Assembly (NCBI GenBank): GCA_903834925.1
Contig: CAILLA010000305.1
Location: 7,115-71,114, forward strand
Direction: 5' to 3'
DNA: 64,000 nt
From: an uncultured Schlesneria sp.
GTDB taxonomy: Bacteria; Planctomycetota; Planctomycetia; Planctomycetales; Planctomycetaceae
Shown here: positions 10,041-50,336 of the stretch, piece by piece
Position numbering within the stretch: position 1 is the stretch's first letter
Layout: the number at the start of each line of letters is the position of its first letter
Program-made: the position numbers and the translations under genes
The notes under the pieces: model-generated
Seen by the model: the letters and a program-made list of their open reading frames with translations, nothing else
Told to the model about the DNA's origin: nothing
Database searches by the model: none

Positions 10041-10060
10041 ACCACCACCACCACCACGGG
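10041..10060. repeat. (ACC)6 trinucleotide microsatellite
   Basis: The sequence reads accaccaccaccaccaccac, in the same divergent intergenic region. Confidence 0.9.
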
Positions 10061-11220: not shown

Positions 11221-11254
11221 TCTTAATGGGTGCGGCCACCTTATTGCTGACTCC

Positions 11255-11764: not shown

Positions 11765-12056
11765 ATTCGGCGATTCCCCTAAAATCGGTGACCGTGTGCA
11801 GATGGTGGATAGGGTGATGATGCTCGTTGTCTGCGATACAAGATGACAGGAAAACATCCCAAAATTCCCTGATCGGAACAACTGTGCGTCAGGTGCGCAA
11901 CGCTCGCCGAAGGTGCGCAACCGTGGCTGACCTGAATTCGTTTCGGAAATAGAGTGCAACTGACAATCTTAGGAGTGACTAGGGGCGGTTGGAACGGTAT
12001 TCTTTGATTGATCGCCGATTTCGTCCTGAGGGACTGTTTTACGGGAAAAGAGACTG

Positions 12057-15803: not shown

Positions 15804-15981
15804 ACGTTAGAAAAAAGAGTTGAAAAGAAGTTGATTTCCTGGATCATATGAAATAGCGAATACTGGGGTTTCATTACTTCCGTCGCCAAATTCAGAATTC
15901 AAAAGGATTCATTTCCTGCATCGTATAGACTTGTGCCTGAAGGCAACGAGTCTCCTCAGTTTCCAAATTCGGAATGACAGA

Positions 15982-16332
15982 ATGAACGATATTGAAGAAC
16001 TGGGCCAACAAGAAACAATCGTCACGACGTCAAAACCAGCTCCGGTCACTCGGACAAAACGGCAACCTCAGTACATCGTCATCGTGTTGAACGACGACTT
16101 GCACACGTTCGAATACGTGATCGATGCACTCTGTCGAGTTTGCGGTCATTCCCTGGAAGATGCTTATCAGTTGGCGATTGAAATTGACGCCAATGGTCAG
16201 GCGGCCGTGTGGAAGGGTGCGATGGAAATTGCGGAACTGAAACGGGATCAGATCATCGGCTTTGGCAGCGATTTTTACGCGGAAAAACCGGTCACGTTTC
16301 CCTTGGGCTGTTATATCGAACCGCTTACGTAA
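15982..16332 (+). CDS. clpS: ATP-dependent Clp protease adaptor ClpS
   Basis: YIVIVLNDDLHTFEYVIDALCRVCGHSLEDAYQLAIEIDANGQAAVWKGAMEIAE matches the ClpS core. Confidence 0.85.
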   Translation: MNDIEELGQQETIVTTSKPAPVTRTKRQPQYIVIVLNDDLHTFEYVIDALCRVCGHSLEDAYQLAIEIDANGQAAVWKGAMEIAELKRDQIIGFGSDFYAEKPVTFPLGCYIEPLT

Positions 16333-27765: not shown

Positions 27766-27849
27766 GCCGATGTGGCGGAACTGGCAGACGCGCTGGATTC
27801 AAAATCCAGTGTCCTACAAGACGTGTGGGTTCGAGTCCCACCATCGGCA
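27766..27849 (+). tRNA. tRNA-Leu (anticodon CAA)
   Basis: Manual cloverleaf: acceptor GCCGATG/CATCGGC plus discriminator A, D-arm GCG-GAACTGGCAGA-CGC, anticodon arm CTGGA-TTCAAAA-TCCAG, long variable arm (GTC-CTACAA-GAC) and T-arm GTGGG-TTCGAGT-CCCAC. Confidence 0.9.
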
Positions 27850-27865
27850 CTCATACTGCGAAAGG
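27796..27865 (+). repeat. attL: direct repeat made of the tRNA-Leu 3' part plus ~14 bp downstream
   Basis: GATTCAAAATCCAGTGTC, then a 6-nt variable loop, then GACGTGTGGGTTCGAGTCCCACCATCGGCACT, then (C)ATACTGCGAA.GG. It matches 61972-62040. Confidence 0.85.
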
Positions 27866-27909: not shown

Positions 27910-27936
27910 GAGTTCTACACCGAGTTCTACATTTTT
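27910..27936 (+). promoter_or_regulatory. tandem GAGTTCTACA motifs (candidate integrase arm-type sites), left end
   Basis: GAGTTCTACAccGAGTTCTACATTTTT. A near-identical pair lies at 61848-61873. Confidence 0.5.
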
Positions 27937-29201
27937 GGTTTCGAGTCCTCGGAACCATCGGTTTGAGGAACTGGTGGAATCGAGTTTTCTGATTCGATCT
28001 GAACTTTTCGTGCTTGTGCCGCTGCTCGCATCGCGGGCTTCGTGTTGATGTAGTAATTCTCTGTCGTGGCAACAGTGGCATGCCCCAAGAAGTCCTTAAC
28101 CACCACGGTTGGAACTTGATTCGCGATTAACTCTGAAGCACAGGTCGATCGGCAGTTCTTCGGGACGTAGTGTGCATCTTCTGGGATACCAGCCGCTGCT
28201 TGGATTCGATGCCAGTCCTTGTAGAGCTGTCGGTAAGTTTCGTATGGCCAGGGCAATACTGGATCACTTGAACCGTTTTCATCGGATTTAGCTTTCCAAT
28301 CGCTCAGCACCTTCGCCAGTTCTTGAGCCATTGGTACCACTCGTTCCTTCCGACTTTTGGAAGTTGACGCTCGAACTCGAACATCAAGAGTCGTGAAGTT
28401 AACATCATCCCAACTCAGACTGAGAATCTCACCGCGTCTGAAGCCGAGGTAATAGGCAACGTAGAGAAATACTCGCCACCAGTCCGTTGACCTCATCGTC
28501 AGGATTAAATCAGGACTTCTGATTGCCACGATCATTGCCATGAAATCTTCTTGAGGAATGATCGTCGGTTTCTTCCGGTGTTCCTTGATGAAGACGTTTC
28601 CAAATTCTGGAATCTCAGTAACCAACCCTCTTCGTTTTGCCCACTTCATTGCGGCCCGTACATGTCGGAGATCACGGTTTACGGTTGCAGGGGCTACGCC
28701 TTCTTTTAGACGAGCATTCGCAAAATCTTCCAAAGTGCTGAGTTTCACTGATGACAGCTTTTTCACTTTGATCGTGGCTGAAAACATCCGCAAAGCACGT
28801 TCGTAGAAGTCGAGAGTTGTTGCAGGCTTTCTAGCGGCATGTTTCTCAAGAAAATCCTTGGCAAAATCATCCCAAAGGATCTCATTTTCAGATTTCCGTC
28901 CCGCTTCAAGTTCCCGTTCCAGTTGCCTTCGTTTTCCTTCGGCATCCTTTTTCACAGTTGTCCGTGTGGATTTCCATCGTTCCTTCCACTCCGTTCCGTC
29001 CGGGGTCGGTTCCCACCATCTGAGGTACCAAAACGGAGACTTGCCGTTTGGGTGCTTCAGGATTTGGACTTTTCGAACGTTTGGTTCCATCGTTTTCTCA
29101 TGAATGCTGGACTGGAGATTTACCAATCCACCATTCTTCCTTTTGAGCCTTGCCAGTCCCTTTCCGTTTGGAAAGAAATCCGCAAGGACAGTTCTCGCCA
29201 A
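27927..29201 (-). CDS. int: tyrosine-type site-specific integrase
   Basis: LGFRRGEILSLSWDDV (Arg), HYVPKNCRSTCASELI (H..R) and LGHATVATTENYY (His/Tyr). It sits next to the tRNA. An alternative start at 29090 (MEPNVRK) is possible. Confidence 0.9.
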   Translation of the reverse strand: MARTVLADFFPNGKGLARLKRKNGGLVNLQSSIHEKTMEPNVRKVQILKHPNGKSPFWYLRWWEPTPDGTEWKERWKSTRTTVKKDAEGKRRQLERELEAGRKSENEILWDDFAKDFLEKHAARKPATTLDFYERALRMFSATIKVKKLSSVKLSTLEDFANARLKEGVAPATVNRDLRHVRAAMKWAKRRGLVTEIPEFGNVFIKEHRKKPTIIPQEDFMAMIVAIRSPDLILTMRSTDWWRVFLYVAYYLGFRRGEILSLSWDDVNFTTLDVRVRASTSKSRKERVVPMAQELAKVLSDWKAKSDENGSSDPVLPWPYETYRQLYKDWHRIQAAAGIPEDAHYVPKNCRSTCASELIANQVPTVVVKDFLGHATVATTENYYINTKPAMRAAAQARKVQIESENSIPPVPQTDGSEDSKPKM

Positions 29202-33679: not shown

Positions 33680-34741
33680 TTATTCCTGGTTCATTTTCAG
33701 GGCTAATTTCAGTTTCTCGATCACCAAATCACGAAGCTTGGATGGTTGAACCACCTTGATTCGGCCTGTCCAGGAAAGAATCCAGCCAAGAATCTCTTCC
33801 AATCCATCCACCTGGAATCTGAGTGTTACACTTCCATCTTTTTGATTTGTCACCGTTTGCGTTTGATGCCAGACAGTTTCCGTAACAACCTTGGCAGCAG
33901 CAGGAGTCACGTTGACTTCGACGTCATATGTCTGATCCCCTCTGAAGACGGCCCATGCATTACCGAAGTAATTTCGAAGACTGAAGTCCTGAGGAACGTT
34001 TGCAGGGTCGTCAAGCATCCGCAGTGTCTTGAATCTGGTGACTCGGTATGTCCGTGGATCGGCTTCATCCACGGGACGTGCGATGATGTACCAAGCATTT
34101 TTGATCAGGCAGAGTCGGTAGGGGTGTAGCCGAAGTTTCACCGGGGAAGCTTCGTACGGACTCTCATACTGACCGGTGATCTGCTTTCCTTTGAGAAGGG
34201 ATAACTGAACTGTTTTGATCACTTCATGGTGACGACTGTGGTCTGCTAGTTTCAGGTCAAGGACAGCCACCAATCGGGAAGCGTCTTCAAAGAGTTGTTG
34301 TGCTTTCTCACCTGATGAAGCAGCAAGTTTTCTTGTTGTGAGTGTTGCTCCCTTGCTGACATCCAGTCCTTGTGTTTGCATCAACGCAGTAGCCACAGTT
34401 TGTCCAAAGACCTCATCGTCAGTCAGGCTCAATACAGGAAATCGAAAATCAGAACGTACTCTGATGGTCTGGTCCGTATGGTCCTTGAAGTATGGGACTC
34501 CAGAGAACTCCAGGACTTCCAGATCCCGGTAGACCGTTCTTTCAGAACATTCAAGTTCTTCAGCGATGGCTTTCGAAGTCCATCTTCCCCGACTTTGGAT
34601 CAGGTTCAAAACTCCTAAAACTCTCGCGATCCTGGCATTCTGTCGTACTCTTCGATCCCGATCGGGCCGTGTGGTAATCGGGTGAGGTTTGCTGGACTTG
34701 TTTCCAGTGGTTTTTGGGACTTTGGTTGCCTTCTTCGTCAT
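33680..34741 (-). CDS. HTH-WYL-WCX transcriptional regulator
   Basis: N-terminal wHTH (RWTSKAIAEELECSERTVYRDLEVLEFSGVPY), a WYL core (KNAWYIIARPVDEADPRTYRVTRFKTL) and a C-terminal LEEILGWILSWTGRIKVVQPSKLRDLV. Confidence 0.85.
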   Translation of the reverse strand: MTKKATKVPKTTGNKSSKPHPITTRPDRDRRVRQNARIARVLGVLNLIQSRGRWTSKAIAEELECSERTVYRDLEVLEFSGVPYFKDHTDQTIRVRSDFRFPVLSLTDDEVFGQTVATALMQTQGLDVSKGATLTTRKLAASSGEKAQQLFEDASRLVAVLDLKLADHSRHHEVIKTVQLSLLKGKQITGQYESPYEASPVKLRLHPYRLCLIKNAWYIIARPVDEADPRTYRVTRFKTLRMLDDPANVPQDFSLRNYFGNAWAVFRGDQTYDVEVNVTPAAAKVVTETVWHQTQTVTNQKDGSVTLRFQVDGLEEILGWILSWTGRIKVVQPSKLRDLVIEKLKLALKMNQE

Positions 34742-35835
34742 GCTGTTTTAGTACCTCGTCGTTGGATGATCTGGAGTTTCCTGGAAAACTCGTTCGGAAA
34801 ATGAGCTTTCAGGAATGCAGCCTGATAGGTCGACACAGCCTCTGCCAAATGATGACTCATGCAGGCGGCTCGTGTTGCCGCATCCCAAATCCTTTCGAAG
34901 AGTCTACTTGCCTCAGGTTCATTAACGCCATTCCCGACAGCCTGGACAATAAACCAATCTTTCGTCGTTGTAGCCTGCTCCCATTGCCGTCTAGCGACTG
35001 CTTTGATGAAGGAATAGGCGTCGGTCATGGGGATGTCTGCTACTCGATTCATGATTAGCATGATTTGTTCTTGAAACAGGATCAGTCCCCGTGTTTCATG
35101 AAGCATCTCTGTAGCACAACAGCCCTCTGACAACTGGCCTTTTCTCTTGGAACCTCGGTAGATGTATTCGTCTAAAATCCCCGCTTCATGAATTTTACCA
35201 AGTTGAATTCCTGTGATCGCAGCAATATCAGTGAGACAGCTTGGCTTTAAAACAGGAAGGAGACTTCGAATTGAGTCTCCTTCACATTGGCTGATTCCTT
35301 CGACATCTCGGGATTGGAGTATTTCAAACGCAGCCGCGTCATTCAAAGGGATTGACGTCAGATCAAAGTCTGAATCTGTTTGTCGGATTTCCTGGGCCAC
35401 AAGGCAGGGTATCGCAGACAGAGAAGTGGACTGCTGGAAATTAACGACATCACAAGAGGCTTCCTCCAGCATTGCTTCGAAGTCTTCTTCAGACCCGTTC
35501 GTATGCGAATTTGCATCAAACCTGAATTTAATGGTTCCAGTAGAATTTGCTTGCAGAAATCGCTCGTAGGGCAACCCGTGCTCTGTTGGATCAACTCCAG
35601 AGAAATTCATCAGATATGAAATCAGTGAACAGCATCCGGCCCCCGTCAGACGGCAGGAAACACCCTGAGCCTTCAGTTGTTGGACTTTCTCGCTTGCATT
35701 TTCAAAAGCACCAATTTGGCCATTTGTCTTCACCGTATCCAGTTCCTGACGTAATCGTTCAGCTACGAAGGGACGGTCCTTGCCGTTGAACATGATCGTC
35801 AAGCGTTCTTGGCAGAGCTGCCGAAGTTGATTCAT
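34738..35835 (-). CDS. truncated DnaE (DNA polymerase III alpha)-like protein, probably catalytically inactive
   Basis: Colinear similarity to internal DnaE segments (GAGCCSLISYLMNFSGVDPTEHGLPYERFL; LFQEQIMLIMNRVA; MSHHLAEAVSTYQAAFLKAHFPNEF). It has no PHP domain and no C-terminal clamp/tau/OB regions. The catalytic PDFDVDF position reads IKFRFDA. Confidence 0.7.
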   Translation of the reverse strand: MNQLRQLCQERLTIMFNGKDRPFVAERLRQELDTVKTNGQIGAFENASEKVQQLKAQGVSCRLTGAGCCSLISYLMNFSGVDPTEHGLPYERFLQANSTGTIKFRFDANSHTNGSEEDFEAMLEEASCDVVNFQQSTSLSAIPCLVAQEIRQTDSDFDLTSIPLNDAAAFEILQSRDVEGISQCEGDSIRSLLPVLKPSCLTDIAAITGIQLGKIHEAGILDEYIYRGSKRKGQLSEGCCATEMLHETRGLILFQEQIMLIMNRVADIPMTDAYSFIKAVARRQWEQATTTKDWFIVQAVGNGVNEPEASRLFERIWDAATRAACMSHHLAEAVSTYQAAFLKAHFPNEFSRKLQIIQRRGTKTA

Positions 35836-35968
35836 GATTCCGTGTTTCCAGTAGCGGTGTGTGTGTCAGTTCGCTTTGGGAGTGTGGATGCTTGGAGCAG
35901 CATCTGTGGGTCAAAGAACTTGGAAGAAATTTGGAGATTGTTCCCATTGGCTTTTAGACCGTGACCAA

Positions 35969-36745
35969 TCAACCATGTCCACGTCCGTTAGTTCCACGGA
36001 GTTGTTGGACTTTGAATTGCAGGTATTCGGCCAGATCATCAACGAGATTCTTCTCTGTCTTGGTGAACCATTTTCGTTGATCTTTCAGAATCTGAACGAT
36101 CCCCTGGTAGCTGAGTTCCCCGATGAATGGCCCCCTTGGGAGACTGCTCAATTTGTCCCCTTGAGGTATAGCTGCTCGTAACCGATCCGGGTTGCGATAC
36201 TCGCGAACCAATGGATTGCCGTCTGATGGCGTTACAAGCATCAGGACGAAGTCTCGGGTTGGAATGTCAAACAGGAGCTTCTCGTCGAACCAACCGTTTT
36301 CCCACAGCCCAACTCGTGCGTTCCTGATGAGTTGATCGGAAGGAAAACCATTTTGTCCGTCGTTATGAATCGTCGTCGCGGATAGAGGAGAACCATATTT
36401 CATCTCGATGAACACCGTTGTTGCCGGGTTCTCCCAGGTAATGACGACGTCGACTTCAGTGAGCCCTTCGTTCCAGTGAAGCTGATGGCGGGGATAGGAC
36501 GGTTGCTTTTGCCAGACATTGATCTTGAGGTTTCGAAAAACTTGTCTTCGGAACCGGTCAGACCCAAGTCCTCGATTGAGGAAATCAGGTAGCCACCATC
36601 TTGGATTGAGGACTTTCAATACTCCAAAAAGTTGTCCCGTAACCACATCTTCACTGGTGGGACGTACAATGAGGGGGCATCGGATTTCACCCTTTCGAGC
36701 TGGTTCACATAGACAACCTCCCTTGCTGTTCAATTCAGTGAGCAT
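35969..36745 (-). CDS. hypothetical protein with a PD-(D/E)xK-like motif
   Basis: Start trimmed to MLTELNSKGG. LTEVDVVITWENPATTVFIEMKYGS gives a D...E-x-K pattern. It overlaps the upstream nuclease gene by 16 nt. Confidence 0.5.
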   Translation of the reverse strand: MLTELNSKGGCLCEPARKGEIRCPLIVRPTSEDVVTGQLFGVLKVLNPRWWLPDFLNRGLGSDRFRRQVFRNLKINVWQKQPSYPRHQLHWNEGLTEVDVVITWENPATTVFIEMKYGSPLSATTIHNDGQNGFPSDQLIRNARVGLWENGWFDEKLLFDIPTRDFVLMLVTPSDGNPLVREYRNPDRLRAAIPQGDKLSSLPRGPFIGELSYQGIVQILKDQRKWFTKTEKNLVDDLAEYLQFKVQQLRGTNGRGHG

Positions 36746-37578
36746 TCCATTGCCTCCCGTGAATCCTGTAGTTGAACCAAATGCTCCTGTGGTTTCGGCC
36801 CCTGGCCCCACTCCCGGCACCTTTGCCGAAAGGAACATGTAGAACAGTTCATCGGACTTTCGACTGGGTAGAAAATTCCCAGATCCACCGCCCGTTGGAT
36901 CGTCTGAACAAGGTCACCCAACCGTCCGCAATCCTCGGAATAGCGGCTGGTCTTCAGCCGTTGCACTTTTGGATTCTTGGTCTTGATGAGGATTGTGTAT
37001 TCAACATTTGGCACCTGTCCCAGGCATTCTTGAACTGCGTGGACATAACAGGTCGGTTGAAGTGATGAACAGACTTCAGATTCAGAATAAGCTCGGCCAC
37101 TTGTCTTGAATTCTTCAACCGTCAGTCCCTGATCCGTGGACTTGATCAGGTCGGTGATGGCGACCAGCGGAGTCTCAAGGTATTCACCTTGGCTATTGCA
37201 CAATGGAACCAGAAATCTGTGTTCGATCGCAACAATCTTTTCTGGTGGAGGTTCCTGAAGATAGATCTCCAGCAGATTGATCCCCTGACCGATGGAATCA
37301 TCCCGGTTATCCCCATCCCGAAATAAAACCTTTTCGTTGGCCTCTTTTTCATCCCAGCATTCGTGAAATACCTTGAAAATTGCCTCTTTATCGATTTCCT
37401 CTTGTTCCTTCACTCGGCGATGATACTCAGCCAGTCCAGCATGAACGGAAGATCCCATGACCAAACCGCAGCTTATGGAATGGCTGGGCAGACTCAGGAT
37501 CCTTTGAAAGAAATATTGAAGTGGACATCGGAGATACTGGCTGATCGCACTGTAGCTCCAGTGGGGACGGTCTCGCAT
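36730..37578 (-). CDS. PD-(D/E)xK nuclease, Cas4/RecB/AddB-type with a 4-Cys Fe-S cluster
   Basis: WSYSAISQYLRCPLQYFF (first Cys), ITDL...VEEFKTSG (D, E-x-K) and the C-terminal CSTCSFRQRC. Confidence 0.8.
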   Translation of the reverse strand: MRDRPHWSYSAISQYLRCPLQYFFQRILSLPSHSISCGLVMGSSVHAGLAEYHRRVKEQEEIDKEAIFKVFHECWDEKEANEKVLFRDGDNRDDSIGQGINLLEIYLQEPPPEKIVAIEHRFLVPLCNSQGEYLETPLVAITDLIKSTDQGLTVEEFKTSGRAYSESEVCSSLQPTCYVHAVQECLGQVPNVEYTILIKTKNPKVQRLKTSRYSEDCGRLGDLVQTIQRAVDLGIFYPVESPMNCSTCSFRQRCREWGQGPKPQEHLVQLQDSREAMECSLN

Positions 37579-37653: not shown

Positions 37654-38220
37654 TCAGCGACTCGTGCGGCTACGTCCATTGCCGTTGGATGCAGTTGTTC
37701 CGTTTTGATTGAGGGCATCAATGACGTCACCGGCTTCGCGTTTGGTCAGGTCGTAGACTCCAACTTTTCTGTTGAGAATCCCTTCGATCCGACTTTCCAA
37801 TTGCGGCGACGTGAGTCCCTGACGCTTTCCAAGATTGAGCAGGTATTGCACCTGTTTGTTGGTGGCAACATCTCGGTTGGCATCATGATCGTTGCCGTTC
37901 TGGTTCGTCTGACCATTCCCATTTTGAGAATTGGAAGTCCCGTTGTTAGAAGATTCCTTGACCGATGATCCTGCTTGTTGCCCGTTGGAATGAGCTGGCC
38001 TTTGTTCATCCCGGCTGGCAATGGCGGTCTCTCCTTCGTACCGTTCGATCTGTTGACTCAACGCCTCTTCGGCCACGTCGAAGAATTCTTTAATCCTTTC
38101 GATCATGGCTTCAGGATCATCCATTGCCACACAGATTTCACCTTCAAGATTTAGGCTAAATCCTGTGGAATTGTAATCACGGGACAGTTTCCGGCTGAGT
38201 CCGACGTTGACCTTTAACAT
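37654..38220 (-). CDS. hypothetical protein with a central N/G/Q/S-rich linker
   Basis: 188-aa ORF in the mobile-element module between the DUF932 gene and the nuclease. Confidence 0.5.
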   Translation of the reverse strand: MLKVNVGLSRKLSRDYNSTGFSLNLEGEICVAMDDPEAMIERIKEFFDVAEEALSQQIERYEGETAIASRDEQRPAHSNGQQAGSSVKESSNNGTSNSQNGNGQTNQNGNDHDANRDVATNKQVQYLLNLGKRQGLTSPQLESRIEGILNRKVGVYDLTKREAGDVIDALNQNGTTASNGNGRSRTSR

Positions 38221-38471: not shown

Positions 38472-39449
38472 TCAGTTGGCCATTTTGAGGGCGAGTTCCC
38501 AGGCTCGTTCCTTCAGTCTGGCTCCTGACCCAAACCAAGACGATTCCAGTCGGTTGCTAGCCCGCTCTACTGAGGTCTTCCCGCGTGTTGAACGGGCGTG
38601 GTCCACATATTCTGTGACCGCATTCAAAGCTGTCCAGGTTGTATGACGGATCGCTGGCATGTCATGACCGATCCCTTCTTCGAATAGTCTCAGCATTTCT
38701 TGCCGGACGTTTTTCGTTCTGGAGGATTCTCCCTCGGGATTGTCTGGATAAACCAGGAGGAAATACTCTTCCAGTTGACGCTGGCTGGGATAATGATGGG
38801 CTAGCCGGTTGATTTGTTCCTCGGTGTCATCGTAGAACAGTTTCGCCAGTCCCAGGACTTCCTGAGCCTGTCGGACCTTCGTTGCCAAGTCTCCTTTGTG
38901 AATGATGGAAATTCCCTGACCTCGCCCCTTTCGGGTCGCAATGGACAATGTATTACCACACACGACTCTGATCGGAGTCCAGTGGACTCTCAGGGAAGAA
39001 CTCCCATCGTGAGAGTTAGACAGCAGCAAGTACTTCTCGGTGATGTCATCTGAGTTCTTCACCCGAATATCATCCGGCAGTTTCGCGAGCATCCAAACCC
39101 GTTCCCCTTTTCCTAGAGCTCCAGCAGTGTGATACCGCAGGCTACCATCAGCCACAACGGCATCGAGGAATCCAAAGGCTTGGTGGTTCTGGACTGGAAC
39201 ATAGCTAGTTCCAACTACTCCCAGAATTTCCTGAGAATCGGATCTGACCACAGCTTTCCGTTGAGGGATTGGAATACCGTCTGTCGTTTGAAGGTTTCTG
39301 AGTTCAGCAAGGTAATTCAAACCGGCTGCATCGATTGCTTCCCGAGCAGTTGCAGGCTCTTCCAGCCGAGTTCCCAGGCCGTGCCAGGGGATTTCCCCGG
39401 CGTACATCATGGCGGTGTGAGCGTTGGTTTTCGCAAGTTCGTGGGCCAT
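38472..39449 (-). CDS. DUF932 / phage-plasmid-like protein (TIGR03299-like)
   Basis: The N-terminus MAHELAKTNAHTAMMYAGEIPWHGLGTRL is characteristic of the family. Confidence 0.75.
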   Translation of the reverse strand: MAHELAKTNAHTAMMYAGEIPWHGLGTRLEEPATAREAIDAAGLNYLAELRNLQTTDGIPIPQRKAVVRSDSQEILGVVGTSYVPVQNHQAFGFLDAVVADGSLRYHTAGALGKGERVWMLAKLPDDIRVKNSDDITEKYLLLSNSHDGSSSLRVHWTPIRVVCGNTLSIATRKGRGQGISIIHKGDLATKVRQAQEVLGLAKLFYDDTEEQINRLAHHYPSQRQLEEYFLLVYPDNPEGESSRTKNVRQEMLRLFEEGIGHDMPAIRHTTWTALNAVTEYVDHARSTRGKTSVERASNRLESSWFGSGARLKERAWELALKMAN

Positions 39450-39546: not shown

Positions 39547-42159
39547 CTATGTGCCTCTCATTGTCTCATCAAGGCCCGCCTGAAGTTTCTTGATATCCAA
39601 TGGCGTCTCGATTTCCGGTTGAATTAACACCCACTTTACCAGTCCCTCTGCCGCACCTTTATCCAAAAACACGTAGCCTTCTGGGCCCTCATCTTTCATG
39701 ACATGAGCGAGGCGTCCGCTTAGCCAGTTTCGTCTCTTAAAAAACTCATCTTCGTGCAGTCGTACATTGTCGTAAAGTTCAGTCAGGAATTCCTGCAGCA
39801 TAAAAACCAGCTTAACTTCGGAATGGTCGGCTCCAAGGCGATGATCACGCCGAAGAAATTGTCCGCAAGACTTCATCACCGTTTCTGAAACGCGGTTAGT
39901 GATAATCACATGGCCGTTAAGGGTGTTTCCCTGCACTTGAAGCCATGGTTGAGCAAGGAGTGCCTCGACATAGTCGAACATCTTTCGCTTTTCCGAAGCA
40001 TTCAAATCATAACCTTCACCCTTACTAGAAAGCTTTGAATCGTAACTCCAATTGTGCTTCTGCGATTCTCGGAGTCTACCATTTGCTAGGTACACTATGC
40101 TGCAAAAACCGTCTGGGCGGCTTCCACCGCCCCAACGCTCCACATGCGGACAAAGGCTGCGTATCAGGTTGAATACATCCTGTTCATATGCCGTACCGGA
40201 GTAATCGTCCGGCAAATTCTTCAAGACATCTCTTGATGATCTGGCAGCTCGGAAAACTCGCTCCTGCTTTCTCTGGAATACTCCATTGATAGCCACCGTT
40301 AAATCGTCATTGAATCGCTTTTTCGTTACGCCGTCTCCAGAAGCAGCTAAAGCGTATCCCAAGCCAAGATGAGCGACACCGGCAACGTCTAAGTGTGCAG
40401 TTTCGACATGACCTCCTGTGTGAACGACGAGGACAGGAAGCATCGATCGGTCGATCAGTTTCAACAAAGATGGGTTAACGCGTGGCGTGAAATGAACTTG
40501 AACCTGCTGATCAACGTTACCTTGACCTTGAAGTGGGTACATTTCGTGTTCTTCAAAGCTACTTGGAGTACTCCGTAATCTCCATCCAGCGGCATCTTTG
40601 ATAATTTTTGCGGTTTCCTTGATAATTGCCTTTGGGACTTGTTCAAGGAACTTGACTTTCAAAGTCTTTACGTTGCCGCCACATTTTGGACATTCGTCAA
40701 TAGTTTCATCTTCAATGAGCTTCTGACAAAATGCCCCTGCACACTGTCGAATCTGATCTTCCCGTACTTTGATGACTCCAATTGCAAGCAACTTTCCCAA
40801 TATTTCCTTCTGGAAATCTGGCACTTTGTCTAGACGGTCAATCTCCAGCAAATTGTTGAGGATGTCTACGCTTCCCATTGGGAGCTTTGTTGGATCAATT
40901 GGACTCCCCAAAGGAATCCCGAATTGTCTCCTGAATTCATCTTCAATTGTCGAACACTCGGCTGAACTTAAGCCGGTGTCGTCCATACGGAAACGAACTA
41001 CGCCGGTTTGGTCGACATCCACATGAACTAAAAACGTTTTGTCTGAAGTGCGGAATTTCAAACTTTTGAGATCGGCAAGTGATCGGACACGGACTGTCTC
41101 ACGCTCTTTGAGCCACATTAAGTCTCGCCTAATTGACTGTCCGTCGAATGCGGATTCGATCATTATGGGAGCGTGGCATGGTCCCATACTACGGCGGAAT
41201 GCGATCCCAATGATGTCGAGCTTGGAGTCGTTTTCATACTCACCCAGAAGCTTTGACTCAACGTCACCTGGATCATAATCAGTGAAGAGCTGCTCTGGGT
41301 CTGGATTCAATGGGAGTTTTGAACGAGTCAGCAGCCAGTTAGAAACAACCTCGACAACACGCTTGTCACCAGCTTTAATTTCAATGCGTGGTGGCTGGTC
41401 TCTAAACCCAATCATTACCCACCCAAAGGTCGTGAAGTGGGCAAACACCTGGTGAAAATCGGCTGTAAGAGATGGGGCATTTTCTCGCTCCAAAAACAAT
41501 ACCGTGAAGCCGTTTTCAAGCCTTTCTTTTGCCTTAAAACGAACTGTCCGATTATCCGAAAGGCTAGACAGGTCATTGGCAAGGTCATTTATTGATTCTT
41601 CAACTACTCGTATTTCGTCATCGCTCAATGCACGAGTTATCGGAAGATGGGATACGGTTGGACGGCTTCTCCAAAGACTTCGCAAATATACTCGTTTAAG
41701 AGAGGATGGGCTGGCATTAAATAGCAGCAGAAGCTGCGTGAATTGGCGTAGTTTACCACGGCTCGCTCCTGATTCGCGGAGCAGTGACTGAAGTTTTCGT
41801 TTGTCTGCATCAGAGAAGATTCGATCGAATTCTTCCTTGAGGCTTTCCCCTTTTCTACGAAGAAACTCTGCCAGGAAAGTAAAGGTCTCATTTTCGCAAG
41901 ACGACAATAGCAGGTTAGTCAATTGCTCATGGGTGGCATTCTTCTCTGTGGAGAGTTTCGCTTTTTCACAGAGAAGACGAATGTTCGCGGTGGGGCATTT
42001 GGAAAGTCGGTGCTTAGCCCTGTGGTAAGCTTTCAGATCACCATCAGGTCGTAGTTGTAACCGGATAGCCACTGGAAAGACGCCCAAACTTTCCCAAAAT
42101 GAGTCGGACTGTCTGCAGAGAAATAGTGATGAAGCGTCTTGAACCAACATAGTCTTCAT
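39547..42159 (-). CDS. large protein with a C-terminal FokI-type restriction-endonuclease cleavage domain, a central Zn-ribbon and an N-terminus of unknown function
   Basis: WGGGSRPDGF...WSYDSKLSSKGEGYDLNASEKRKMFDYVEAL parallels FokI GGSRKPDGA...VDTKAYSGGYNLPIGQADEMQRYVEEN (FokI recalled from memory). CPKCGGNV lies mid-protein. Confidence 0.65.
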   Translation of the reverse strand: MKTMLVQDASSLFLCRQSDSFWESLGVFPVAIRLQLRPDGDLKAYHRAKHRLSKCPTANIRLLCEKAKLSTEKNATHEQLTNLLLSSCENETFTFLAEFLRRKGESLKEEFDRIFSDADKRKLQSLLRESGASRGKLRQFTQLLLLFNASPSSLKRVYLRSLWRSRPTVSHLPITRALSDDEIRVVEESINDLANDLSSLSDNRTVRFKAKERLENGFTVLFLERENAPSLTADFHQVFAHFTTFGWVMIGFRDQPPRIEIKAGDKRVVEVVSNWLLTRSKLPLNPDPEQLFTDYDPGDVESKLLGEYENDSKLDIIGIAFRRSMGPCHAPIMIESAFDGQSIRRDLMWLKERETVRVRSLADLKSLKFRTSDKTFLVHVDVDQTGVVRFRMDDTGLSSAECSTIEDEFRRQFGIPLGSPIDPTKLPMGSVDILNNLLEIDRLDKVPDFQKEILGKLLAIGVIKVREDQIRQCAGAFCQKLIEDETIDECPKCGGNVKTLKVKFLEQVPKAIIKETAKIIKDAAGWRLRSTPSSFEEHEMYPLQGQGNVDQQVQVHFTPRVNPSLLKLIDRSMLPVLVVHTGGHVETAHLDVAGVAHLGLGYALAASGDGVTKKRFNDDLTVAINGVFQRKQERVFRAARSSRDVLKNLPDDYSGTAYEQDVFNLIRSLCPHVERWGGGSRPDGFCSIVYLANGRLRESQKHNWSYDSKLSSKGEGYDLNASEKRKMFDYVEALLAQPWLQVQGNTLNGHVIITNRVSETVMKSCGQFLRRDHRLGADHSEVKLVFMLQEFLTELYDNVRLHEDEFFKRRNWLSGRLAHVMKDEGPEGYVFLDKGAAEGLVKWVLIQPEIETPLDIKKLQAGLDETMRGT

Positions 42160-44229: not shown

Positions 44230-44589
44230 TCAAATTCCGAAGAAGTCTTTGCACGTTTTCATCACCACCGCTTTGAGGATTTCAAACGGAACAGATGCAG
44301 ACTTCTCTTTCAATGTGGAAATCGCCTTATTCCAGACGGTGTCATTTCTGGCAGCGTCTAAAAACTCGTGGCCAGCCCATGTCAGAGACCTCGGTACCCA
44401 AGAAGATTCTGAGAAATCAGAGAGGTCAGTGGCATCCAGTAAACCAGCATCGTGAAGCATTTTGACGTGGTAACTGACCAGACTGGGATTTCTGCTTGGA
44501 AGATTGATGTTGACCCACTCATCTGGGGCTTGATCTGATTTTTCTACAGCGAGCAAAATCTCTCTTACGAGCTCTAGGTCTCGCTTCAT
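44230..44589 (-). CDS. DUF2513-like winged-helix protein
   Basis: MKRDLELVREILLAVEK...VSYHVKMLHDAGLLDA...LTWAGHEFLDAARN. The start overlaps the hsdS stop. Confidence 0.65.
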   Translation of the reverse strand: MKRDLELVREILLAVEKSDQAPDEWVNINLPSRNPSLVSYHVKMLHDAGLLDATDLSDFSESSWVPRSLTWAGHEFLDAARNDTVWNKAISTLKEKSASVPFEILKAVVMKTCKDFFGI

Positions 44590-45713
44590 TGGCCTCCTCC
44601 AGATTCTTGCTGGTTGAATATTTGGTTAATGATGGCTGGTAACAGGGCTTGCGTCTCAGCAGCAGCAGCCGTCAGGAGTTCACGGGCCGCTTCAACTTTC
44701 TCAAATAACTCCCCGAACCATATCTGTTCCTTATAAGCAGGAACCGGGGTCGGAACTTCGAGCAACACTTTGGCACTAGTTGTTCTATTGCGGTCCGCAC
44801 TTCCAGGCGACGCTTGACCTACGTGGTGTAGTCCTTCGGACGTGAGGAGAAAGAAACAAATAAAGCGGGATGTGGCTACACCGGAGAGTGGAACGTAAGT
44901 CAAGTACCGATGCGAACCGTATCGACTATCGTCTTCAGGCTTGGCCACGGCAATCGCCCCCTCCCAAGCCTTGATGTTGCTAATAAGGATATCTCCGGCA
45001 TGCACAAGTTGGGGTCTTTCCCAAGTGATATCGCATCCTTGTAGCGGTGGGTTGTGAAATGTCCCCTTTCCAAAGGATCTGACGGAGACCCCCGGGTATT
45101 CAGTAAATGGGTCAACCAAAACTGGTCGCCTAACAAGTGGAGCAACATCTCCCAATCGATGGCGATCAGCATCTCGTACAATTCGATTGTACGCAGAAAG
45201 AAGCATCCCTTGGAAATGTTCGCCAATTTCATTCAACCGCGTGTTTGCCGCTTGAATTTTGAGACTCAATTCGTCGAGGTATTCTACCACTTGCTTTTGT
45301 TTGGCCAATGATGGAAGGCTGACATGAACATTTGCGATGTCTCGTTCTTTGAGGGAGACGTTTGCAGTGCCTTTCATTAATGGAACAAACAGGGAGTCCT
45401 TCTTTGCCAGAAGCAAGTAATAGAGATACTTTGCATCACACCTTTGGTTATCTTTGGTTTGAAGGGCCACCAGGAGGTCTGCCAACGCAAATTTGCCATC
45501 CTGATAGTGAATACGATGAAGAGCAGCGTCACCGTGGCCAGTTGACGAAACCAGCGGAATACAGACTGTAGGCCCTTCAAGCTGATAAGTACTTGAAGTC
45601 CGTCGGTAGGCTGCAGTAACGACGAGTGGGTATGCCCCAACCTCCGTCTTGAGCGTTGGTGATTCACCTCGAACCAAGTGACAGAGGTCCCCAAGTCGAA
45701 AGCTTTGAGTCAT
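44586..45713 (-). CDS. hsdS: type I restriction-modification specificity subunit
   Basis: Two target-recognition halves separated by a conserved coiled spacer (LPSLAKQKQVVEYLDEL...; VPAYKEQIWFGELFEKV...). It has 4-nt overlaps with both hsdM and the DUF2513 gene. Confidence 0.85.
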   Translation of the reverse strand: MTQSFRLGDLCHLVRGESPTLKTEVGAYPLVVTAAYRRTSSTYQLEGPTVCIPLVSSTGHGDAALHRIHYQDGKFALADLLVALQTKDNQRCDAKYLYYLLLAKKDSLFVPLMKGTANVSLKERDIANVHVSLPSLAKQKQVVEYLDELSLKIQAANTRLNEIGEHFQGMLLSAYNRIVRDADRHRLGDVAPLVRRPVLVDPFTEYPGVSVRSFGKGTFHNPPLQGCDITWERPQLVHAGDILISNIKAWEGAIAVAKPEDDSRYGSHRYLTYVPLSGVATSRFICFFLLTSEGLHHVGQASPGSADRNRTTSAKVLLEVPTPVPAYKEQIWFGELFEKVEAARELLTAAAAETQALLPAIINQIFNQQESGGGQ

Positions 45714-47251
45714 GGCTTCCTCCCCAAAAGATCTTTGATTTCCTGCAAAATCTCTGCAAGTTGGAATTCTTTTCTGAGGATATCTTCTATCAGTTGTTCA
45801 GGCGGCAAATGATCTATGTCGGACTTTGCGTTCGGGTTCTTGATGTCCAGATTGCAGTTCGTTTCAAGAATTTGTTTCGCCGGAATGTTCCAAGCTTGTT
45901 CTGTGACTTTTCGTTTCCCCCACCACTTGAGGCAGCCTGCGAACTCTTCGAACTGGACGGGTTGTGTCTTTGTATATTGTCGCCGCCCTTCAGGCAGGGG
46001 TTGCTCATAAAACCAGACATGCTTCGTTGGTCCAGTCCGATCAAAGAATAACAAGTTGGTGGGAATGCTCGTATAGGGAGCAAAGACTCCATTTGGCAGT
46101 CTGACGATCGTGTGGAGATTGAACCTCGTCAGTAATTCTTGCTTTATTCGTGCACATACTCCTTCAGCGAAGAGAACGCCGTTAGGAACAACTACTGCCG
46201 CTCGACCTGGTTTCGGAGTAGCTCTCAGCTTACGCATGATGAGTTGCATGAAAAGAAGAGCGGTTTCTGAAGTCTGTTTGTCTTCAGCGAAATTCCCTTG
46301 AATTCCTTTTTCTTCCTCGCCCCCAAATGGAGGATTGGTCAGAATCACATCTACCCTGTCGTGTTCGTTGATATCAGTAAGTTTCTGAGAAAGACTATTT
46401 CCCTTGACGATTTGCGGCGACTCCAGCCCATGCAGAAGCAGATTCATCTGACAAAGCATGTAGGGCAGTGTTTTTGCTTCGTTCCCGTAGATACTTCGCT
46501 CTTGAAGGAGTCGTCGGTCTTGAACCGTATTGCATTGCTTCTCCATGTGCCTGAATGCTTCCACCAGAAACCCCCCGGTTCCACATGCCGGGTCAAGAAC
46601 GGTTTCTCCCAATTGTGGATTCATGACTTCCACCATGAAACGAACTACGGCCCTGGGAGTGTAGAATTCCCCCGAGTCCCCGGCTGCATCCCTCATCTCC
46701 TTGAGCATGCTCTCGTAAAGATGGCCCAGAGTGTGGATTTCTTCCGTGGAGTCAAAGTGAATGGCTCCAATCTTGTTAATCACGTCCCTCAGCAGGTAGC
46801 CGCTGTCCATGCGGTTCGTGACCCCTGAGAAAACAGAAGCCACCACATCTCGACGGTCATCTCCGTTACCACCCTGAAGACTTCTGAGGTATGCAATCAA
46901 CCCCTGGCCCTTGGTTCCATCAGGCAGGGTGGCTTCATCGTTGTTGATGAAGTGCTTCAGAACATCACCACTGATGCCATCTTCTTTCGCAGCCCAGTCA
47001 CGCCATCTGTATGGTGATTCGATGACCGGCCTAAACTTCTGTCGTTTCAGTTTGGCTCGTTCTTCTTCAATTCGTTCCTGATCGTCCAGAAACTTCAGGA
47101 ACATCACCCACGTCAGCATGGGTAGTCGGTCCAGGTCACCGTTAAGCCCCTTATCCTTCCGCATGATGTCACGTGCAGACTTGACGAGACTCCCAAGTCG
47201 TTGGGCTGTCGTGAGCGGTTGGTCTGTCTTCTTTACTGCCTTCTTGGCCAT
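45710..47251 (-). CDS. hsdM: type I restriction-modification N6-adenine DNA methyltransferase subunit
   Basis: HsdM N-terminal region (RDIMRKDKGLNGDLDRLPMLTWVMFLKFLDD), FYTPRAVVRFMVEVMNP, DPACGTGGFL and ILTNPPFGG. Confidence 0.92.
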   Translation of the reverse strand: MAKKAVKKTDQPLTTAQRLGSLVKSARDIMRKDKGLNGDLDRLPMLTWVMFLKFLDDQERIEEERAKLKRQKFRPVIESPYRWRDWAAKEDGISGDVLKHFINNDEATLPDGTKGQGLIAYLRSLQGGNGDDRRDVVASVFSGVTNRMDSGYLLRDVINKIGAIHFDSTEEIHTLGHLYESMLKEMRDAAGDSGEFYTPRAVVRFMVEVMNPQLGETVLDPACGTGGFLVEAFRHMEKQCNTVQDRRLLQERSIYGNEAKTLPYMLCQMNLLLHGLESPQIVKGNSLSQKLTDINEHDRVDVILTNPPFGGEEEKGIQGNFAEDKQTSETALLFMQLIMRKLRATPKPGRAAVVVPNGVLFAEGVCARIKQELLTRFNLHTIVRLPNGVFAPYTSIPTNLLFFDRTGPTKHVWFYEQPLPEGRRQYTKTQPVQFEEFAGCLKWWGKRKVTEQAWNIPAKQILETNCNLDIKNPNAKSDIDHLPPEQLIEDILRKEFQLAEILQEIKDLLGRKP

Positions 47252-47367
47252 CTTTTTGTTCTATCGTATAAACCACGTTTGACCCACACACCTGTCTCGG
47301 CCGAATTAACCAATAAAGTGCACTTTAATTTACTCACCGGTCGACCATTTACATCCACAACACCCCC

Positions 47368-49119
47368 TCAGCTATTGTTCGCATTTAGAAGCGTCTCCAA
47401 TTCTTCAGGATGAATGTCTATTGGCATCTCATAGGTCACGCCTCCAATGACAAGGGGTACGTATGCGTCAGACCCTGATGAAAGTTTCTGTTGCCATTTC
47501 CGTGAACGACATGAGTTCCATATTGTTTGAGGCGATTGAAGATGACGCTGTCTAAGCCTATCCTCGAAAGTGATCAGTGAAATCGCAGGGACAGTCTCTG
47601 CCGCATAGTTTCCACTCGGCTCTGAATCGGGCATCAGCACAATCCCGAAATACTCGTCGACCAGTTCCCATCTAACAAACTTAAACATTTCACGCTTTTG
47701 TTCCACAGACATGCCCCGAAGGATCCTTTCACACAAGAGCACCTGCTGCTTCCCAACCTCTGCCTCCTTTGTTGTCGACTCAATTTCGTTCATGTCATCC
47801 GCCGCAATCACACACTTCGCTTGTACCAAGAGGACCTGTGTGGGCACGGAGTCTCGGTAGGCTAACAAATCTAATTCTGAGCATTCGTTCCCGGCATACA
47901 TTTGAACATTGGTCTTGAATGCGTATTTGGCATTCTTTTGGATATGGAGGCCGAATCTGAGTAAAAGCCTCTTCTCCCGTGTGCCATTAAGAGTCGCACC
48001 CAAATTCCTCGTCGAACGGTTCCTACACAACGCTTTAAGGACATTTCTAGGCTGCCGGCTCAGCGAGACTACTAATGGGGACCAAATGTAATCGTTTTGC
48101 ATCGTGAATAGTGGCCGTAAGAACACATCTCCTTTGATATCTCTCTGGTCGTAAGTCAAAAAGCTTGTGATCTTCTGAACAATCTCGGCACTGAGTTTCG
48201 TGTGCGTCACCATAGCATCAAGAAAGCCCCTTCCCGAGACGACCTGAGTCGGCATGCACTCAGACTGAGGCACCTTTTCTTCAAACAATCTCAAATACAA
48301 TCTCATCGCTACATTAGACCAACCCAGGAGTACTCTCCAATAACATGTAAAGTCTGAATAGCTGAAGCCACCGAGGTCGCTCGTAGGTTCCAAGTCAACA
48401 ACGTCAGGCTGCTCAACCGATGCAGATGCATCTAATACCGCTTCACTCAAATACGGAAGTATACTGGTATGATGAATTCTTCCCCTACTTAACACCGGCT
48501 CGATTGTGGCTACGGTATCTGCGATGTAACGCAGCGAACCATCGTTTTCGTTGGATAACATTCCCTTCTGCCTGTGATGAACCAAGTCGGCAAAGTGCAG
48601 GTGAGCACCCGTCCTCTTTAAGGAAGGTCGTAAGAAGCGGATTGTCCTTTTGGACCTGTCGGCCTGAACTTCAAACAATCCTTTTCCGAACCCCACGTGC
48701 AGTAATTCCAACTGAGCGTATGCTGTTGCATGGGAATGGAACTGACCTGCTAGATTGAGTTGTTCCCCTGTAATTGAGTTGATCGTCTTTTGTGCAAGTC
48801 GCCCGGCTAGCCATCGGATTGAGATGGTCAGCCCCTCGTTCCTTGAATGTAAGTACTGCCATACCCCAACTGAGCCCAACGTCGGCTGTACAATCCGCAT
48901 TACGATGGCCATTCCATCGAACGCAGTTAGGAGACTCAAGAGAAGTGTGTCTGGATCGATTGACCATGCTGGTAAGTGAGTATGGAATGGATCAAGAACA
49001 GTGGTCTCCATCTCACGAAGAAAGGCATGTGCCTCCTCTCCTGACAGGGGAAGAGATTCAGGGGCGATTAATATATCTTTTCTTAGAGGCATTTTACATC
49101 TGGCATTTTTGAGCAGCAA
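47368..49119 (-). CDS. hypothetical 583-aa protein embedded in the type I R-M operon (possible PD-(D/E)xK-like motif near the C-terminus)
   Basis: Long ORF between the RES gene and hsdM. SELDLLAYRDSVPTQVLLVQAKCV gives a D...Q-x-K pattern. No family recognised. Confidence 0.6.
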   Translation of the reverse strand: MLLKNARCKMPLRKDILIAPESLPLSGEEAHAFLREMETTVLDPFHTHLPAWSIDPDTLLLSLLTAFDGMAIVMRIVQPTLGSVGVWQYLHSRNEGLTISIRWLAGRLAQKTINSITGEQLNLAGQFHSHATAYAQLELLHVGFGKGLFEVQADRSKRTIRFLRPSLKRTGAHLHFADLVHHRQKGMLSNENDGSLRYIADTVATIEPVLSRGRIHHTSILPYLSEAVLDASASVEQPDVVDLEPTSDLGGFSYSDFTCYWRVLLGWSNVAMRLYLRLFEEKVPQSECMPTQVVSGRGFLDAMVTHTKLSAEIVQKITSFLTYDQRDIKGDVFLRPLFTMQNDYIWSPLVVSLSRQPRNVLKALCRNRSTRNLGATLNGTREKRLLLRFGLHIQKNAKYAFKTNVQMYAGNECSELDLLAYRDSVPTQVLLVQAKCVIAADDMNEIESTTKEAEVGKQQVLLCERILRGMSVEQKREMFKFVRWELVDEYFGIVLMPDSEPSGNYAAETVPAISLITFEDRLRQRHLQSPQTIWNSCRSRKWQQKLSSGSDAYVPLVIGGVTYEMPIDIHPEELETLLNANNS

Positions 49120-49195
49120 AGAAAGCGGGTAACTCAGCCAAAAATAGTCATTGGCTCACTTCGCAGTATTAAAACTGCCGCGTTCATTCGAAATA

Positions 49196-50323: not shown

Positions 50324-50336
50324 GGGAGTGTCCTAT

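Follow-up and report, generated by a model that had tools for sequence, protein, structure and literature searches.

A truncated DNA polymerase III alpha homologue lacking the catalytic aspartates in the backbone of an integrated planctomycete island

In DNA polymerase III (Pol III) alpha, encoded by dnaE, the thumb and the clamp-binding/HhH domain hold duplex DNA, and residues 400-575 of the Escherichia coli protein comprise the strand with D401 and D403, the thumb (433-510) and the palm's second half, which carries D555. The gene described here, called mini-DnaE, encodes a protein of about one third the length of full Pol III alpha. It lies on an integrated island within a stretch of 64,000 nucleotides (the window) from an uncultured Schlesneria sp. 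of the Planctomycetota (GenBank assembly GCA_903834925.1, contig CAILLA010000305.1, positions 7,115 to 71,114 of the forward strand). Dead polymerase homologues are known in the Y family, ImuB being an example. Two surveys of C-family polymerases (2013 and 2026) removed truncated sequences and those without an active site; the groups listed were only DnaE1-3 and PolC, with no inactivated C-family group among them. According to the original prediction for this locus, no system built on a DnaE fragment is known to have been described. None was found in the literature searched (for DUF932, WYL with DnaE, inactive DnaE-like proteins, and WYL with metallo-beta-lactamase and Pol III), in which the mini-DnaE family and its gene module appear to be undescribed.

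The gene directly downstream encodes an HTH-WYL-WCX regulator. A studied member of this class is DriD, a DNA-damage activator that is itself activated by single-stranded DNA (ssDNA). DriD, PafBC and CapW bind ssDNA as the activating signal (PMC10853764, PMC11804915, PMC11662680). wHTH-WYL-WCX regulators control the cyclic-oligonucleotide-based antiphage signalling system (CBASS) and the bacteriophage exclusion (BREX) system and sense ssDNA (PMC11662680).

Structure, catalytic residues and conservation of mini-DnaE

The protein was originally described as colinear with internal blocks of Pol III alpha, and both profile and structure searches confirmed this homology. In Pfam, residues 3-97 match positions 2-97 of the 260 of DNA_pol3_alpha (PF07733, E 5e-12) and residues 140-302 contain the complete DNA_pol3_finger domain (PF17657, E 4.9e-27). 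Against the PDB, phmmer placed residues 8-101 on E. coli DnaE 300-399 and residues 149-354 on DnaE 576-786 (E 7e-28), and a family profile of 25 members aligned with E. coli DnaE 273-789 at an hhalign probability of 99.9%. An AlphaFold2 (AF2) model built on the 25-member family alignment reached a predicted local distance difference test score (pLDDT) of 84 and a predicted template modelling score (pTM) of 0.84, with only the loop 228-250 being poor. When this model was searched against the PDB with Foldseek, the Thermus, E. coli and Mycobacterium structures of Pol III alpha were found (E 1e-14 to 4e-12, query-normalised template modelling score, TMq, 0.75-0.81), followed only by PolC (range to E 1e-5) and nothing further. 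Because these approaches agree, the homology is real and far beyond chance. It falls short of the curated cut-offs for the complete enzyme, since the NCBIfam DnaE models score 80-145 bits against cut-offs of 434-1806 (TIGR00594, 145 against 434; PRK05673, 135 against 1002). The DnaE1 models outscore the DnaE2 model.

What remains is the first half of the palm and most of the fingers. The N-terminus corresponds to E. coli DnaE residue 293-300 or thereabouts, past the PHP domain (PF02811, no match), and the C-terminus to about residue 790, so that the clamp-binding/HhH, OB and tau-binding parts are gone (no PF14579, no PF01336). The absence of all these parts had been noticed originally and is borne out by the Pfam and phmmer boundaries. 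In the interior, about 45 residues (102-148) stand where E. coli DnaE has 400-575. The AF2 model shows there a strand-helix-strand remnant (104-110, 116-126, 131-135), after which the chain directly enters the first helix of the fingers.

At the catalytic strand, where the window protein has IKFRFDA, the family consensus TIQFxFVA contains no acidic residue that is conserved among 50 aligned members. This consensus was read in the close family and in 25 diverse members at 25-40% identity, and it bears out the earlier claim that the PDFDVDF motif is lost. In all members the D555 strand (VKFDFLGL) is deleted, and the same gap, which spans about E. coli 433-560 by hhalign, removes the thumb and the second palm half as well. 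The original prediction had equated the third aspartate with the Gln of VVNFQQS. This proved wrong, because the VKFDFLGL strand has no counterpart in mini-DnaE and is wholly deleted, not substituted. The alignment did not restore the acidic triad, as none of D401, D403 and D555 is kept. In a count over whole sets, a DxD no more than 22 residues past the ERF motif was present in 78 of 82 long DnaE proteins (at least 900 residues) and was genuine in about 2 of 99 short relatives (300-520 residues); ten other matches of the regular expression in the short set were spurious (e.g. the DPD of ERFRDPDG) or came from fragments of ordinary DnaE. From the lost triad, thumb and second palm half, we infer that mini-DnaE no longer polymerises.

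An unconventional or split polymerase could in principle stay active by taking its catalytic residues from other positions or from another subunit. Phages do have DnaE in two open reading frames (ORFs; BFVD matches of 463-652 residues), the family keeps the GxG, ERF, QEQ and KSH motifs, and one short relative, P0063, keeps FVEFDFD. Nevertheless, the loss of the acidic residues in the catalytic strand and the deletion of the thumb and D555 strand extend through the family, and the island ORFs tested contain no further fragment of DnaE, PHP or palm. On these three grounds, activity of this kind is highly improbable and essentially excluded. P0063 itself (370 residues) also has ALYRPGP and KSHSTAYA as in real DnaE, yet its thumb and second palm half are deleted in the same way. 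It could represent an intermediate or else a separate, more recent truncation.

Mini-DnaE belongs to a family. A word-indexed search gave 37 clusters at the 90% level with lengths of 349-408 residues, both Pfam domains and 30-66% identity, one of these clusters being named from a Planctomycetia metagenome-assembled genome (MAG). An exhaustive profile search gave about 35 clusters at the 50% level (284-442 residues) that align with the full profile in one piece and outrank thousands of ordinary DnaE. Other sequence collections were less productive. In genome contigs, the best 80 loci of a profile and pattern search were all apparently full-length dnaE and no mini-DnaE was recovered; the pattern used there, [AT]A[FY]LK[AT]H[FH]P, probably fits ordinary DnaE and allows no count per genome. 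In metagenome contigs, TRGxILFQEQIM had no match, though it fits the window and five of the related loci (L001-L004 and L009), and the looser LFQEQIM found 120 stretches that contained, by hmmsearch, only ordinary long DnaE or chance matches. A scan of viral contigs with the mini-DnaE protein gave a single 24-residue match, and the element is not catalogued as viral. Matches on Sulfitobacter plasmids (H2-H8), seemingly short and in one piece, were rejected as ordinary full-length DnaE2 in imuB-dnaE2 cassettes.

The motifs GAGCSSLVSY, DPxxHGLPYERFL, TRGMILFQEQIM and CKSHHLSEAxxxYxAAFLKAHFPxEF are invariant or nearly so in the family; in the window protein, Met replaces the family Lys of the CKSHH motif. 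Mean pairwise identity reaches 66-68% in the GxG/ERFL (palm) and QEQIM (fingers) segments, which we take to hold motifs that line the substrate cleft of real DnaE, and is lowest, at 32%, in the remnant of the catalytic strand. Where synonymous divergence (dS) was measurable, the ratio of nonsynonymous to synonymous divergence (dN/dS) of mini-DnaE was 0.17-0.21, and 0.38 in one close pair. As all these values lie below 0.4, mini-DnaE is under purifying selection.

This pattern speaks to the idea that the gene is a decaying, functionless remnant of a captured dnaE. Mini-DnaE is the most divergent gene of its block, and the window copy has the Met for Lys substitution. Against this, dozens of clusters, reaching down to 25% identity, have intact ORFs of 340-405 residues with the same boundaries, the low dN/dS and invariant motifs go with a confident fold, and the gene order and the translational coupling to the WYL gene are kept. 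The conservation pattern essentially excludes a pseudogene, and the probability left to it is next to nil. On the minus strand at 35256-35283, within the coding region, a hairpin with a 10-bp stem and a T-rich tail was observed, probably by chance. In promoter and terminator scans, terminator-like sites were no more frequent than in shuffled sequence.

The island and its conserved gene block

The integrated island of about 34.2 kb is defined by the tRNA-Leu repeat at its borders, the integrase beside the tRNA and a drop in G+C (about 0.48, compared with about 0.53 in the flanks). The 3' part of tRNA-Leu is repeated at the far border as an imperfect 56-bp direct repeat (Table 1). Nearly all genes have minus-strand orientation. 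Their order from the far end is HTH_17, a 405-residue protein with a weak wHTH match, a 266-residue DnaX-like protein (mini-DnaX), a 1349-residue ORF, type I restriction-modification (R-M) genes with RES and DUF2513, an HTH/IrrE fusion, an 870-residue ORF, the block that contains mini-DnaE, a 351-residue ORF on the plus strand and the integrase. The block itself consists of nine genes in the order DUF932, 188-residue protein, Cas4-like, 258-residue protein, mini-DnaE, WYL, 134-residue lipoprotein, 132-residue membrane protein and beta-CASP/metallo-beta-lactamase (MBL).

This block order is shared across 11 independent elements, namely the window and ten others with mini-DnaE identity down to 25-30%, and it terminates at a tyrosine or serine recombinase. 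These elements come from metagenomic contigs, and one close relative comes from a Planctomycetia MAG. The linkage of mini-DnaE to WYL and nuclease genes, on which the original prediction turned, is conserved. The WYL gene is directly downstream of mini-DnaE in nine of the 11 (an HTH_11-only protein and an 86-residue ORF take its place in the other two), the Cas4-like PDDEXK_1 gene is upstream in nine of the ten with this region visible, and the MBL gene follows in nine elements. Upstream of DUF932 the cargo varies between type I R-M, Thoeris ThsA/ThsB, a Cap4-type nuclease, an HNH/ScoMcrA-like protein, and metal efflux by a resistance-nodulation-division (RND) pump and a P-type ATPase. Because the block is constant while these genes differ between elements, the former is backbone and the latter, defence genes included, are cargo. 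The element also exists in a decayed copy (L001, Joint Genome Institute 3300071641 contig, 7901-28980). There the 258-residue gene is down to its last 22 codons and the MBL protein is shortened to 260 residues, with a DDE transposase after it, and the mini-DnaE-WYL pair is intact, having outlasted the rest of the block.

As predicted, the stop codon of mini-DnaE overlaps the start of the WYL gene in ATGA. All three domains of the regulator score above the Pfam cut-offs (HTH_11 at residues 47-83, WYL at 173-242 and WCX at 271-347). Among solved structures it comes nearest to Caulobacter DriD (8TP8, E 4e-21 across residues 55-347); structures of the DriD C-domain rank next and, more weakly, mycobacterial PafB/PafC. 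At E <=0.01 it matched no other solved regulator, and hence apparently neither BrxR nor CapW. The earlier placement in the class of CapW and BrxR thus stands for the complete architecture and fails for the nearest relatives, which are DriD and then PafBC. By analogy with them, the regulator probably senses ssDNA.

The Cas4/RecB-like Fe-S nuclease recognised earlier, upstream on the same strand, was borne out by a full-length match to PDDEXK_1 (PF12705, E 7.8e-28) and by four cysteines, C18, C245, C248 and C254, that are invariant in seven homologues; TIGR00372 gives 40 bits, under its cut-off of 65. The stop of this gene overlaps the start of the 258-residue gene by 16 nucleotides. For the latter, the suggested PD-(D/E)xK fold agrees with an invariant pattern E32-D33...D99...E114-x-K116 at the level of motifs. 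Its profile matches are all sub-threshold (DUF234 in four of seven homologues, with a best E of 0.023, the window protein itself giving 0.17; HSDR_N_2, 0.024; PADLOC PDC-M15A, 0.004), and profile searches of the PDB and Pfam and an hhalign comparison with the Cas4-like block gave nothing significant. We take DUF234 and HSDR_N_2 to be families of the PD-(D/E)xK clan. A single-sequence AF2 model was unusable (pLDDT 35). It is possible, from its motifs, that this protein is a PD-(D/E)xK nuclease.

Such a set of genes led to the hypothesis of an anti-phage or anti-plasmid defence. In that case the whole block, or only its Cas4-like/258-residue/mini-DnaE/WYL part, would act as a constitutive defence borne by the island, with mini-DnaE acting on invader proteins or DNA ends as sensor or decoy, the nucleases as effectors and the WYL protein as an ssDNA-sensing repressor. 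The two or three nucleases, the control of CBASS and BREX by regulators of this architecture (PMC11662680) and an evolution of mini-DnaE several-fold faster than that of its neighbours are in line with this. The block adjoins defence cargo in several elements, and two loci (L098 and L099) set a distant mini-DnaE relative beside GmrSD and PLD genes. On the other side, PADLOC-DB v2 has no match for the mini-DnaE, DUF932, 188-residue and MBL proteins and matches the WYL and Cas4-like proteins only with generic models, the 258-residue protein scoring just E 0.004. Moreover, the defence genes vary as cargo around an invariant block, which also occurs with metal-efflux cargo and always stands at the recombinase end of the element. 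The regulator, too, is nearest to an activator. The decoy for replisome-targeting phage proteins that was proposed originally is weakened as well, because at about 33-36% identity to genuine Planctomycetota DnaE, mini-DnaE is a poor mimic. Membership of mini-DnaE in a defence system is therefore not supported by its place in a conserved island backbone and the blank PADLOC result, and a defence role for the block is unlikely, though it is a serious rival.

Several other island genes remain to be mentioned. The 188-residue protein has no family match, and profile searches of the PDB and Pfam gave nothing significant. No Pfam or PHROG family was found for the 1349-, 870- and 583-residue ORFs, apart from a weak HTH-like match at the N-terminus of the first; a homologue of the 870-residue protein, 34% identical, occurs in three related islands (L002-L004) in inverted orientation. 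The island HsdM is 88-90% identical to that of the islands L002 and L009. An HTH_3-IrrE/ImmA fusion may give the island a second regulatory switch, since we take it to resemble mobile-element switches of the ImmR/ImmA type. Capsid, tail, terminase, type IV secretion system and relaxase families were absent from the tested island ORFs. Outside the island, a chromosomal ORF of 1248 residues (12057-15803, plus strand) has no Pfam match, and a strong AT skew of 0.27-0.34 at 14001-16000 suggests a compositionally biased or repetitive protein.

Table 1. Positions of the island features in the window and of the related plasmid cluster
Feature	Position	Strand	Remarks
tRNA-Leu(CAA) gene	27766-27850		Beside the island integrase
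attL, 3' part of tRNA-Leu(CAA)	27796-27851	+	Direct-repeat search
Tyrosine integrase	27927-29201	-	Pfam
Metallo-beta-lactamase/beta-CASP nuclease, RNase J-like, 434 residues	30815-32119	-	Conserved in block
Predicted membrane protein, 132 residues	32205-32603	-	Conserved in block; sequence inspection
Predicted lipoprotein, 134 residues	33080-33484	-	Signal peptide with LIGC lipobox; conserved downstream of WYL
HTH_11-WYL-WCX regulator	33680-34741	-	Directly downstream of mini-DnaE
mini-DnaE, 365 residues	34738-35835	-	Pol III alpha first palm half and fingers; Pfam, PDB, hhalign, AF2/Foldseek
Conserved protein, 258 residues, candidate PD-(D/E)xK nuclease	35969-36745	-	60-88% identity in homologues
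Cas4/RecB-like PD-(D/E)xK exonuclease, Fe-S type	36730-37578	-	PDDEXK_1 and four Cys
188-residue protein	37654-38220	-	Conserved N- and C-terminal domains, low-complexity linker between
DUF932/TIGR03299 'phage/plasmid-like protein'	38472-39449	-	First gene of conserved block
870-residue ORF	39547-42159	-
HTH_3 and IrrE/ImmA-type M78 peptidase fusion, 380 residues	42826-43968	-	Not conserved in related loci examined
Type I R-M cargo	44230-52703	-
HsdS	44586-45713	-	Type I R-M
HsdM	45710-47251	-	Type I R-M
583-residue ORF	47368-49119	-	Accompanies type I R-M
RES-domain protein	49196-50323	-	Accompanies type I R-M, with the 583-residue ORF and DUF2513
HsdR	50337-52703	-	Type I R-M
1349-residue ORF	52993-57042	-
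mini-DnaX, 266 residues	58263-59063	-	Clamp-loader gamma/tau domains I-II; same island as mini-DnaE
HTH_17 excisionase-like protein	60417-60794	-	Far island end
attR, imperfect 56-bp copy of the tRNA-Leu 3' part	61972-62027	+	Closes island
pCY186 cluster (L095)	NC_014390.1 121195-136367		Genes 1024-15173; includes FtsH-like AAA/M41
332-residue palm-only DnaE fragment of the pCY186 cluster	9598-10596 of L095

Mini-DnaX and a related cluster on a Butyrivibrio plasmid

A second truncated replisome homologue is present on the same island. Mini-DnaX matches E. coli gamma/tau 11-248 (E 5e-13) and phrog_5846 'clamp loader' (E 3e-26). It has a Walker A motif GPIGSGKTT, a Zn module CDSCSMC and a Walker B motif FIDELQ, with SRL, which keeps the sensor Arg, replacing SRC. 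The protein ends at gamma residue 250 or so, without the collar domain III (PF12169, which is present in Butyrivibrio DnaX). DnaX-like AAA+ genes were also found in L008 and, more weakly, in L005.

A tblastn search of plasmids recovered a 480-residue protein of Butyrivibrio proteoclasticus pCY186 (WP_013283142.1) with the same truncation as mini-DnaE and no DxD. It is annotated as 'hypothetical protein' and was earlier called 'DNA polymerase III-associated protein', a name that is only an annotation label; no study of the protein was found in the literature searched. Its named relatives come from Butyrivibrio, Pseudobutyrivibrio and a Lachnospiraceae MAG. The surrounding genes are, in order, WYL, a 277-residue protein, MBL, a 226-residue protein, DnaX, the mini-DnaE-like gene, an FtsH-like AAA, a palm-only fragment, a DnaA/Hda-like gene and later PolC, which looks like a collection of replisome-derived genes. 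The window MBL is homologous over its full length to that of pCY186 (27% over 432 residues, E 9e-38), and mini-DnaX matches the pCY186 DnaX at E 1e-15. Among relatives of the pCY186 protein, L097 carries WYL, MBL, Toprim, FtsH-like AAA and mini-DnaE, and in L098 and L099 mini-DnaE is paired with a DnaA/Hda-like AAA+. The resemblance to the window protein lies in palm positions 3-126, the fingers and the absence of DxD, and in WYL, a homologous MBL and DnaX nearby. The differences are an identity of 22%, a length of 415-504 residues with an N-terminal extension, and a position that does not adjoin WYL. The setting is also different, being a megaplasmid or chromosome among DnaX, DnaA/Hda-like, Toprim, FtsH-like AAA and PolC genes, with no DUF932/Cas4-like block seen.

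A truncated polymerase and a truncated clamp loader within one element could be dominant-negative or redirecting parts that arrest, poison or hijack the replisome of a host or competitor. Like the genes in the leading region of plasmids, they would then serve host takeover, anti-defence or establishment when the island is induced or enters a cell. The DnaX-like AAA+ genes in L008 and L005 and the full DnaX beside the Butyrivibrio protein agree with this, as does expression under a regulator of stress-sensing type. DUF932 (TIGR03299) is a family of laterally transferred regions, found near anti-restriction genes in enterobacterial islands. The quick evolution of mini-DnaE would fit the tracking of host partners. 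Nevertheless, the surfaces of alpha for epsilon (PHP), clamp and tau are all gone, mini-DnaX has no collar domain with which to build the clamp-loader pentamer, and it lies 23 kb from mini-DnaE and could be checked for in few elements only. Interference with a replisome is a serious rival as well, one that we consider distinctly unlikely. The same missing regions tell against the clamp- or tau-binding adaptor suggested originally, which is unlikely because mini-DnaE has none of the parts that bind clamp, tau and epsilon.

A broader proposal joins the two settings. Mini-DnaE, the DnaX-derived AAA+ protein, the beta-CASP/MBL nuclease and the ssDNA-sensing WYL regulator may form a 'pseudo-replisome' module of mobile elements, spread from Planctomycetota islands to Lachnospiraceae plasmids. 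This is a speculative extension, conceivable and more doubtful than not. If it were true, exapted inactive replisome parts would sense intermediates of replication, or factors that target the replisome, and would steer nucleases or the replisome of the host. It would also make up a new functional class, of defence or of replication hijack, around the first known dead C-family polymerase, with one sub-branch even exported through the twin-arginine translocation (Tat) pathway.

Possible function and comparison with known systems

The reading that we favour, tentatively and short of an even chance, is that mini-DnaE binds nucleic acid as a non-catalytic subunit of a module with which the island processes DNA, controlled by a DriD-like regulator. 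The retained substrate cleft, with the palm motifs GxG and ERFL and the finger motifs QEQIM and (K)SHH, would bind a nucleic-acid end or a nucleotide. Mini-DnaE would work as a non-enzymatic subunit beside the island nucleases, perhaps together with the DnaX-like ATPase. The setting could be DNA transactions of the element itself once it has been excised or has entered a cell, with a replication that depends on recombination or on the host replisome. The co-translated DriD-like WYL regulator would switch the operon when ssDNA appears.

Several points weigh against such a role. Mini-DnaE is the fastest-evolving gene of the block, with 30-48% identity compared with 60-88% for the DUF932, 258-residue, WYL and MBL proteins, and its dN is 3-6 times that of the block neighbours. 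As dS is saturated for most locus pairs, usable dN/dS between genes comes from one close pair (L001/L009). Rapid evolution of this kind characterises conflict genes more often than the housekeeping functions of an element, and it favours a conflict role. The three nucleases with a WYL regulator also resemble the architecture of defence systems. DNA binding may be weak or lost, because the thumb and the clamp-binding/HhH domain are gone, and no gene of the island was recognised as a replication initiator or helicase. In addition, seven distant relatives (P0043, P0047, P0055, P0056, P0070, P0182 and P0186) have Tat-type N-termini (M-x-x-RR-x-F-L-K and a hydrophobic stretch), and the contig of P0186 shows the same WYL/MBL context as other mini-DnaE elements. 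Such predicted export signals are hard to reconcile with a cytoplasmic role on DNA. Finally, the context sample is small, with the 11 window-type elements, assigned to Planctomycetota on the strength of one named relative, and three loci around relatives of the Butyrivibrio plasmid protein.

Whatever its exact role, mini-DnaE is the core of a replicative polymerase exapted for a non-catalytic role, and it forms a diversified and selected family of dozens of clusters in two phyla, fixed in an island backbone. Sequences of this kind were filtered out of the C-family surveys. A module of nine genes can be cloned, which lets one ask what a polymerase cleft does without its chemistry. The module also bears on the replication and establishment of poorly known integrative elements and on the role of the widespread neighbourhoods with DUF932, Cas4-like and WYL genes on mobile elements. 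On the practical side, the database label 'DNA polymerase III alpha subunit' on mini-DnaE would mislead counts of polymerases in MAGs.

Among known systems, Pol III alpha of the DnaE1 type (E. coli, Taq) shares with mini-DnaE the first half of the palm, the fingers and the GxG, ERFL, QEQ and KSH motifs. It differs in having its full domains and the Asp triad and in being encoded at a chromosomal dnaE locus, whereas mini-DnaE is on a mobile island. Split phage DnaE resemble mini-DnaE in that short ORFs carry part of Pol III alpha. Both phage ORFs together apparently make a complete polymerase, and we assume that the catalytic residues are retained; on the contrary, the missing parts of mini-DnaE are nowhere in the element and its catalytic strand is degenerate.

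For the regulator, the HTH-WYL-WCX architecture is common to DriD, PafBC, CapW, BrxR and the island protein. Unlike that type, the island WYL gene stands at the end of the genes that it possibly controls and not divergent from them. In its evolutionary condition, mini-DnaE resembles ImuB and other inactivated Y-family proteins (PMC12926913, PMC6511836), in which a dead polymerase fold is kept under selection as an accessory in a multi-gene module for DNA transactions. ImuB belongs to the Y family and partners active DnaE2 and ImuA in an SOS-regulated chromosomal cassette. Mini-DnaE belongs instead to the C family, has nuclease partners and no encoded active polymerase partner, and resides on an integrative element. 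It is a Pol III alpha fold with a new architecture, a lost chemistry and a new genomic role.

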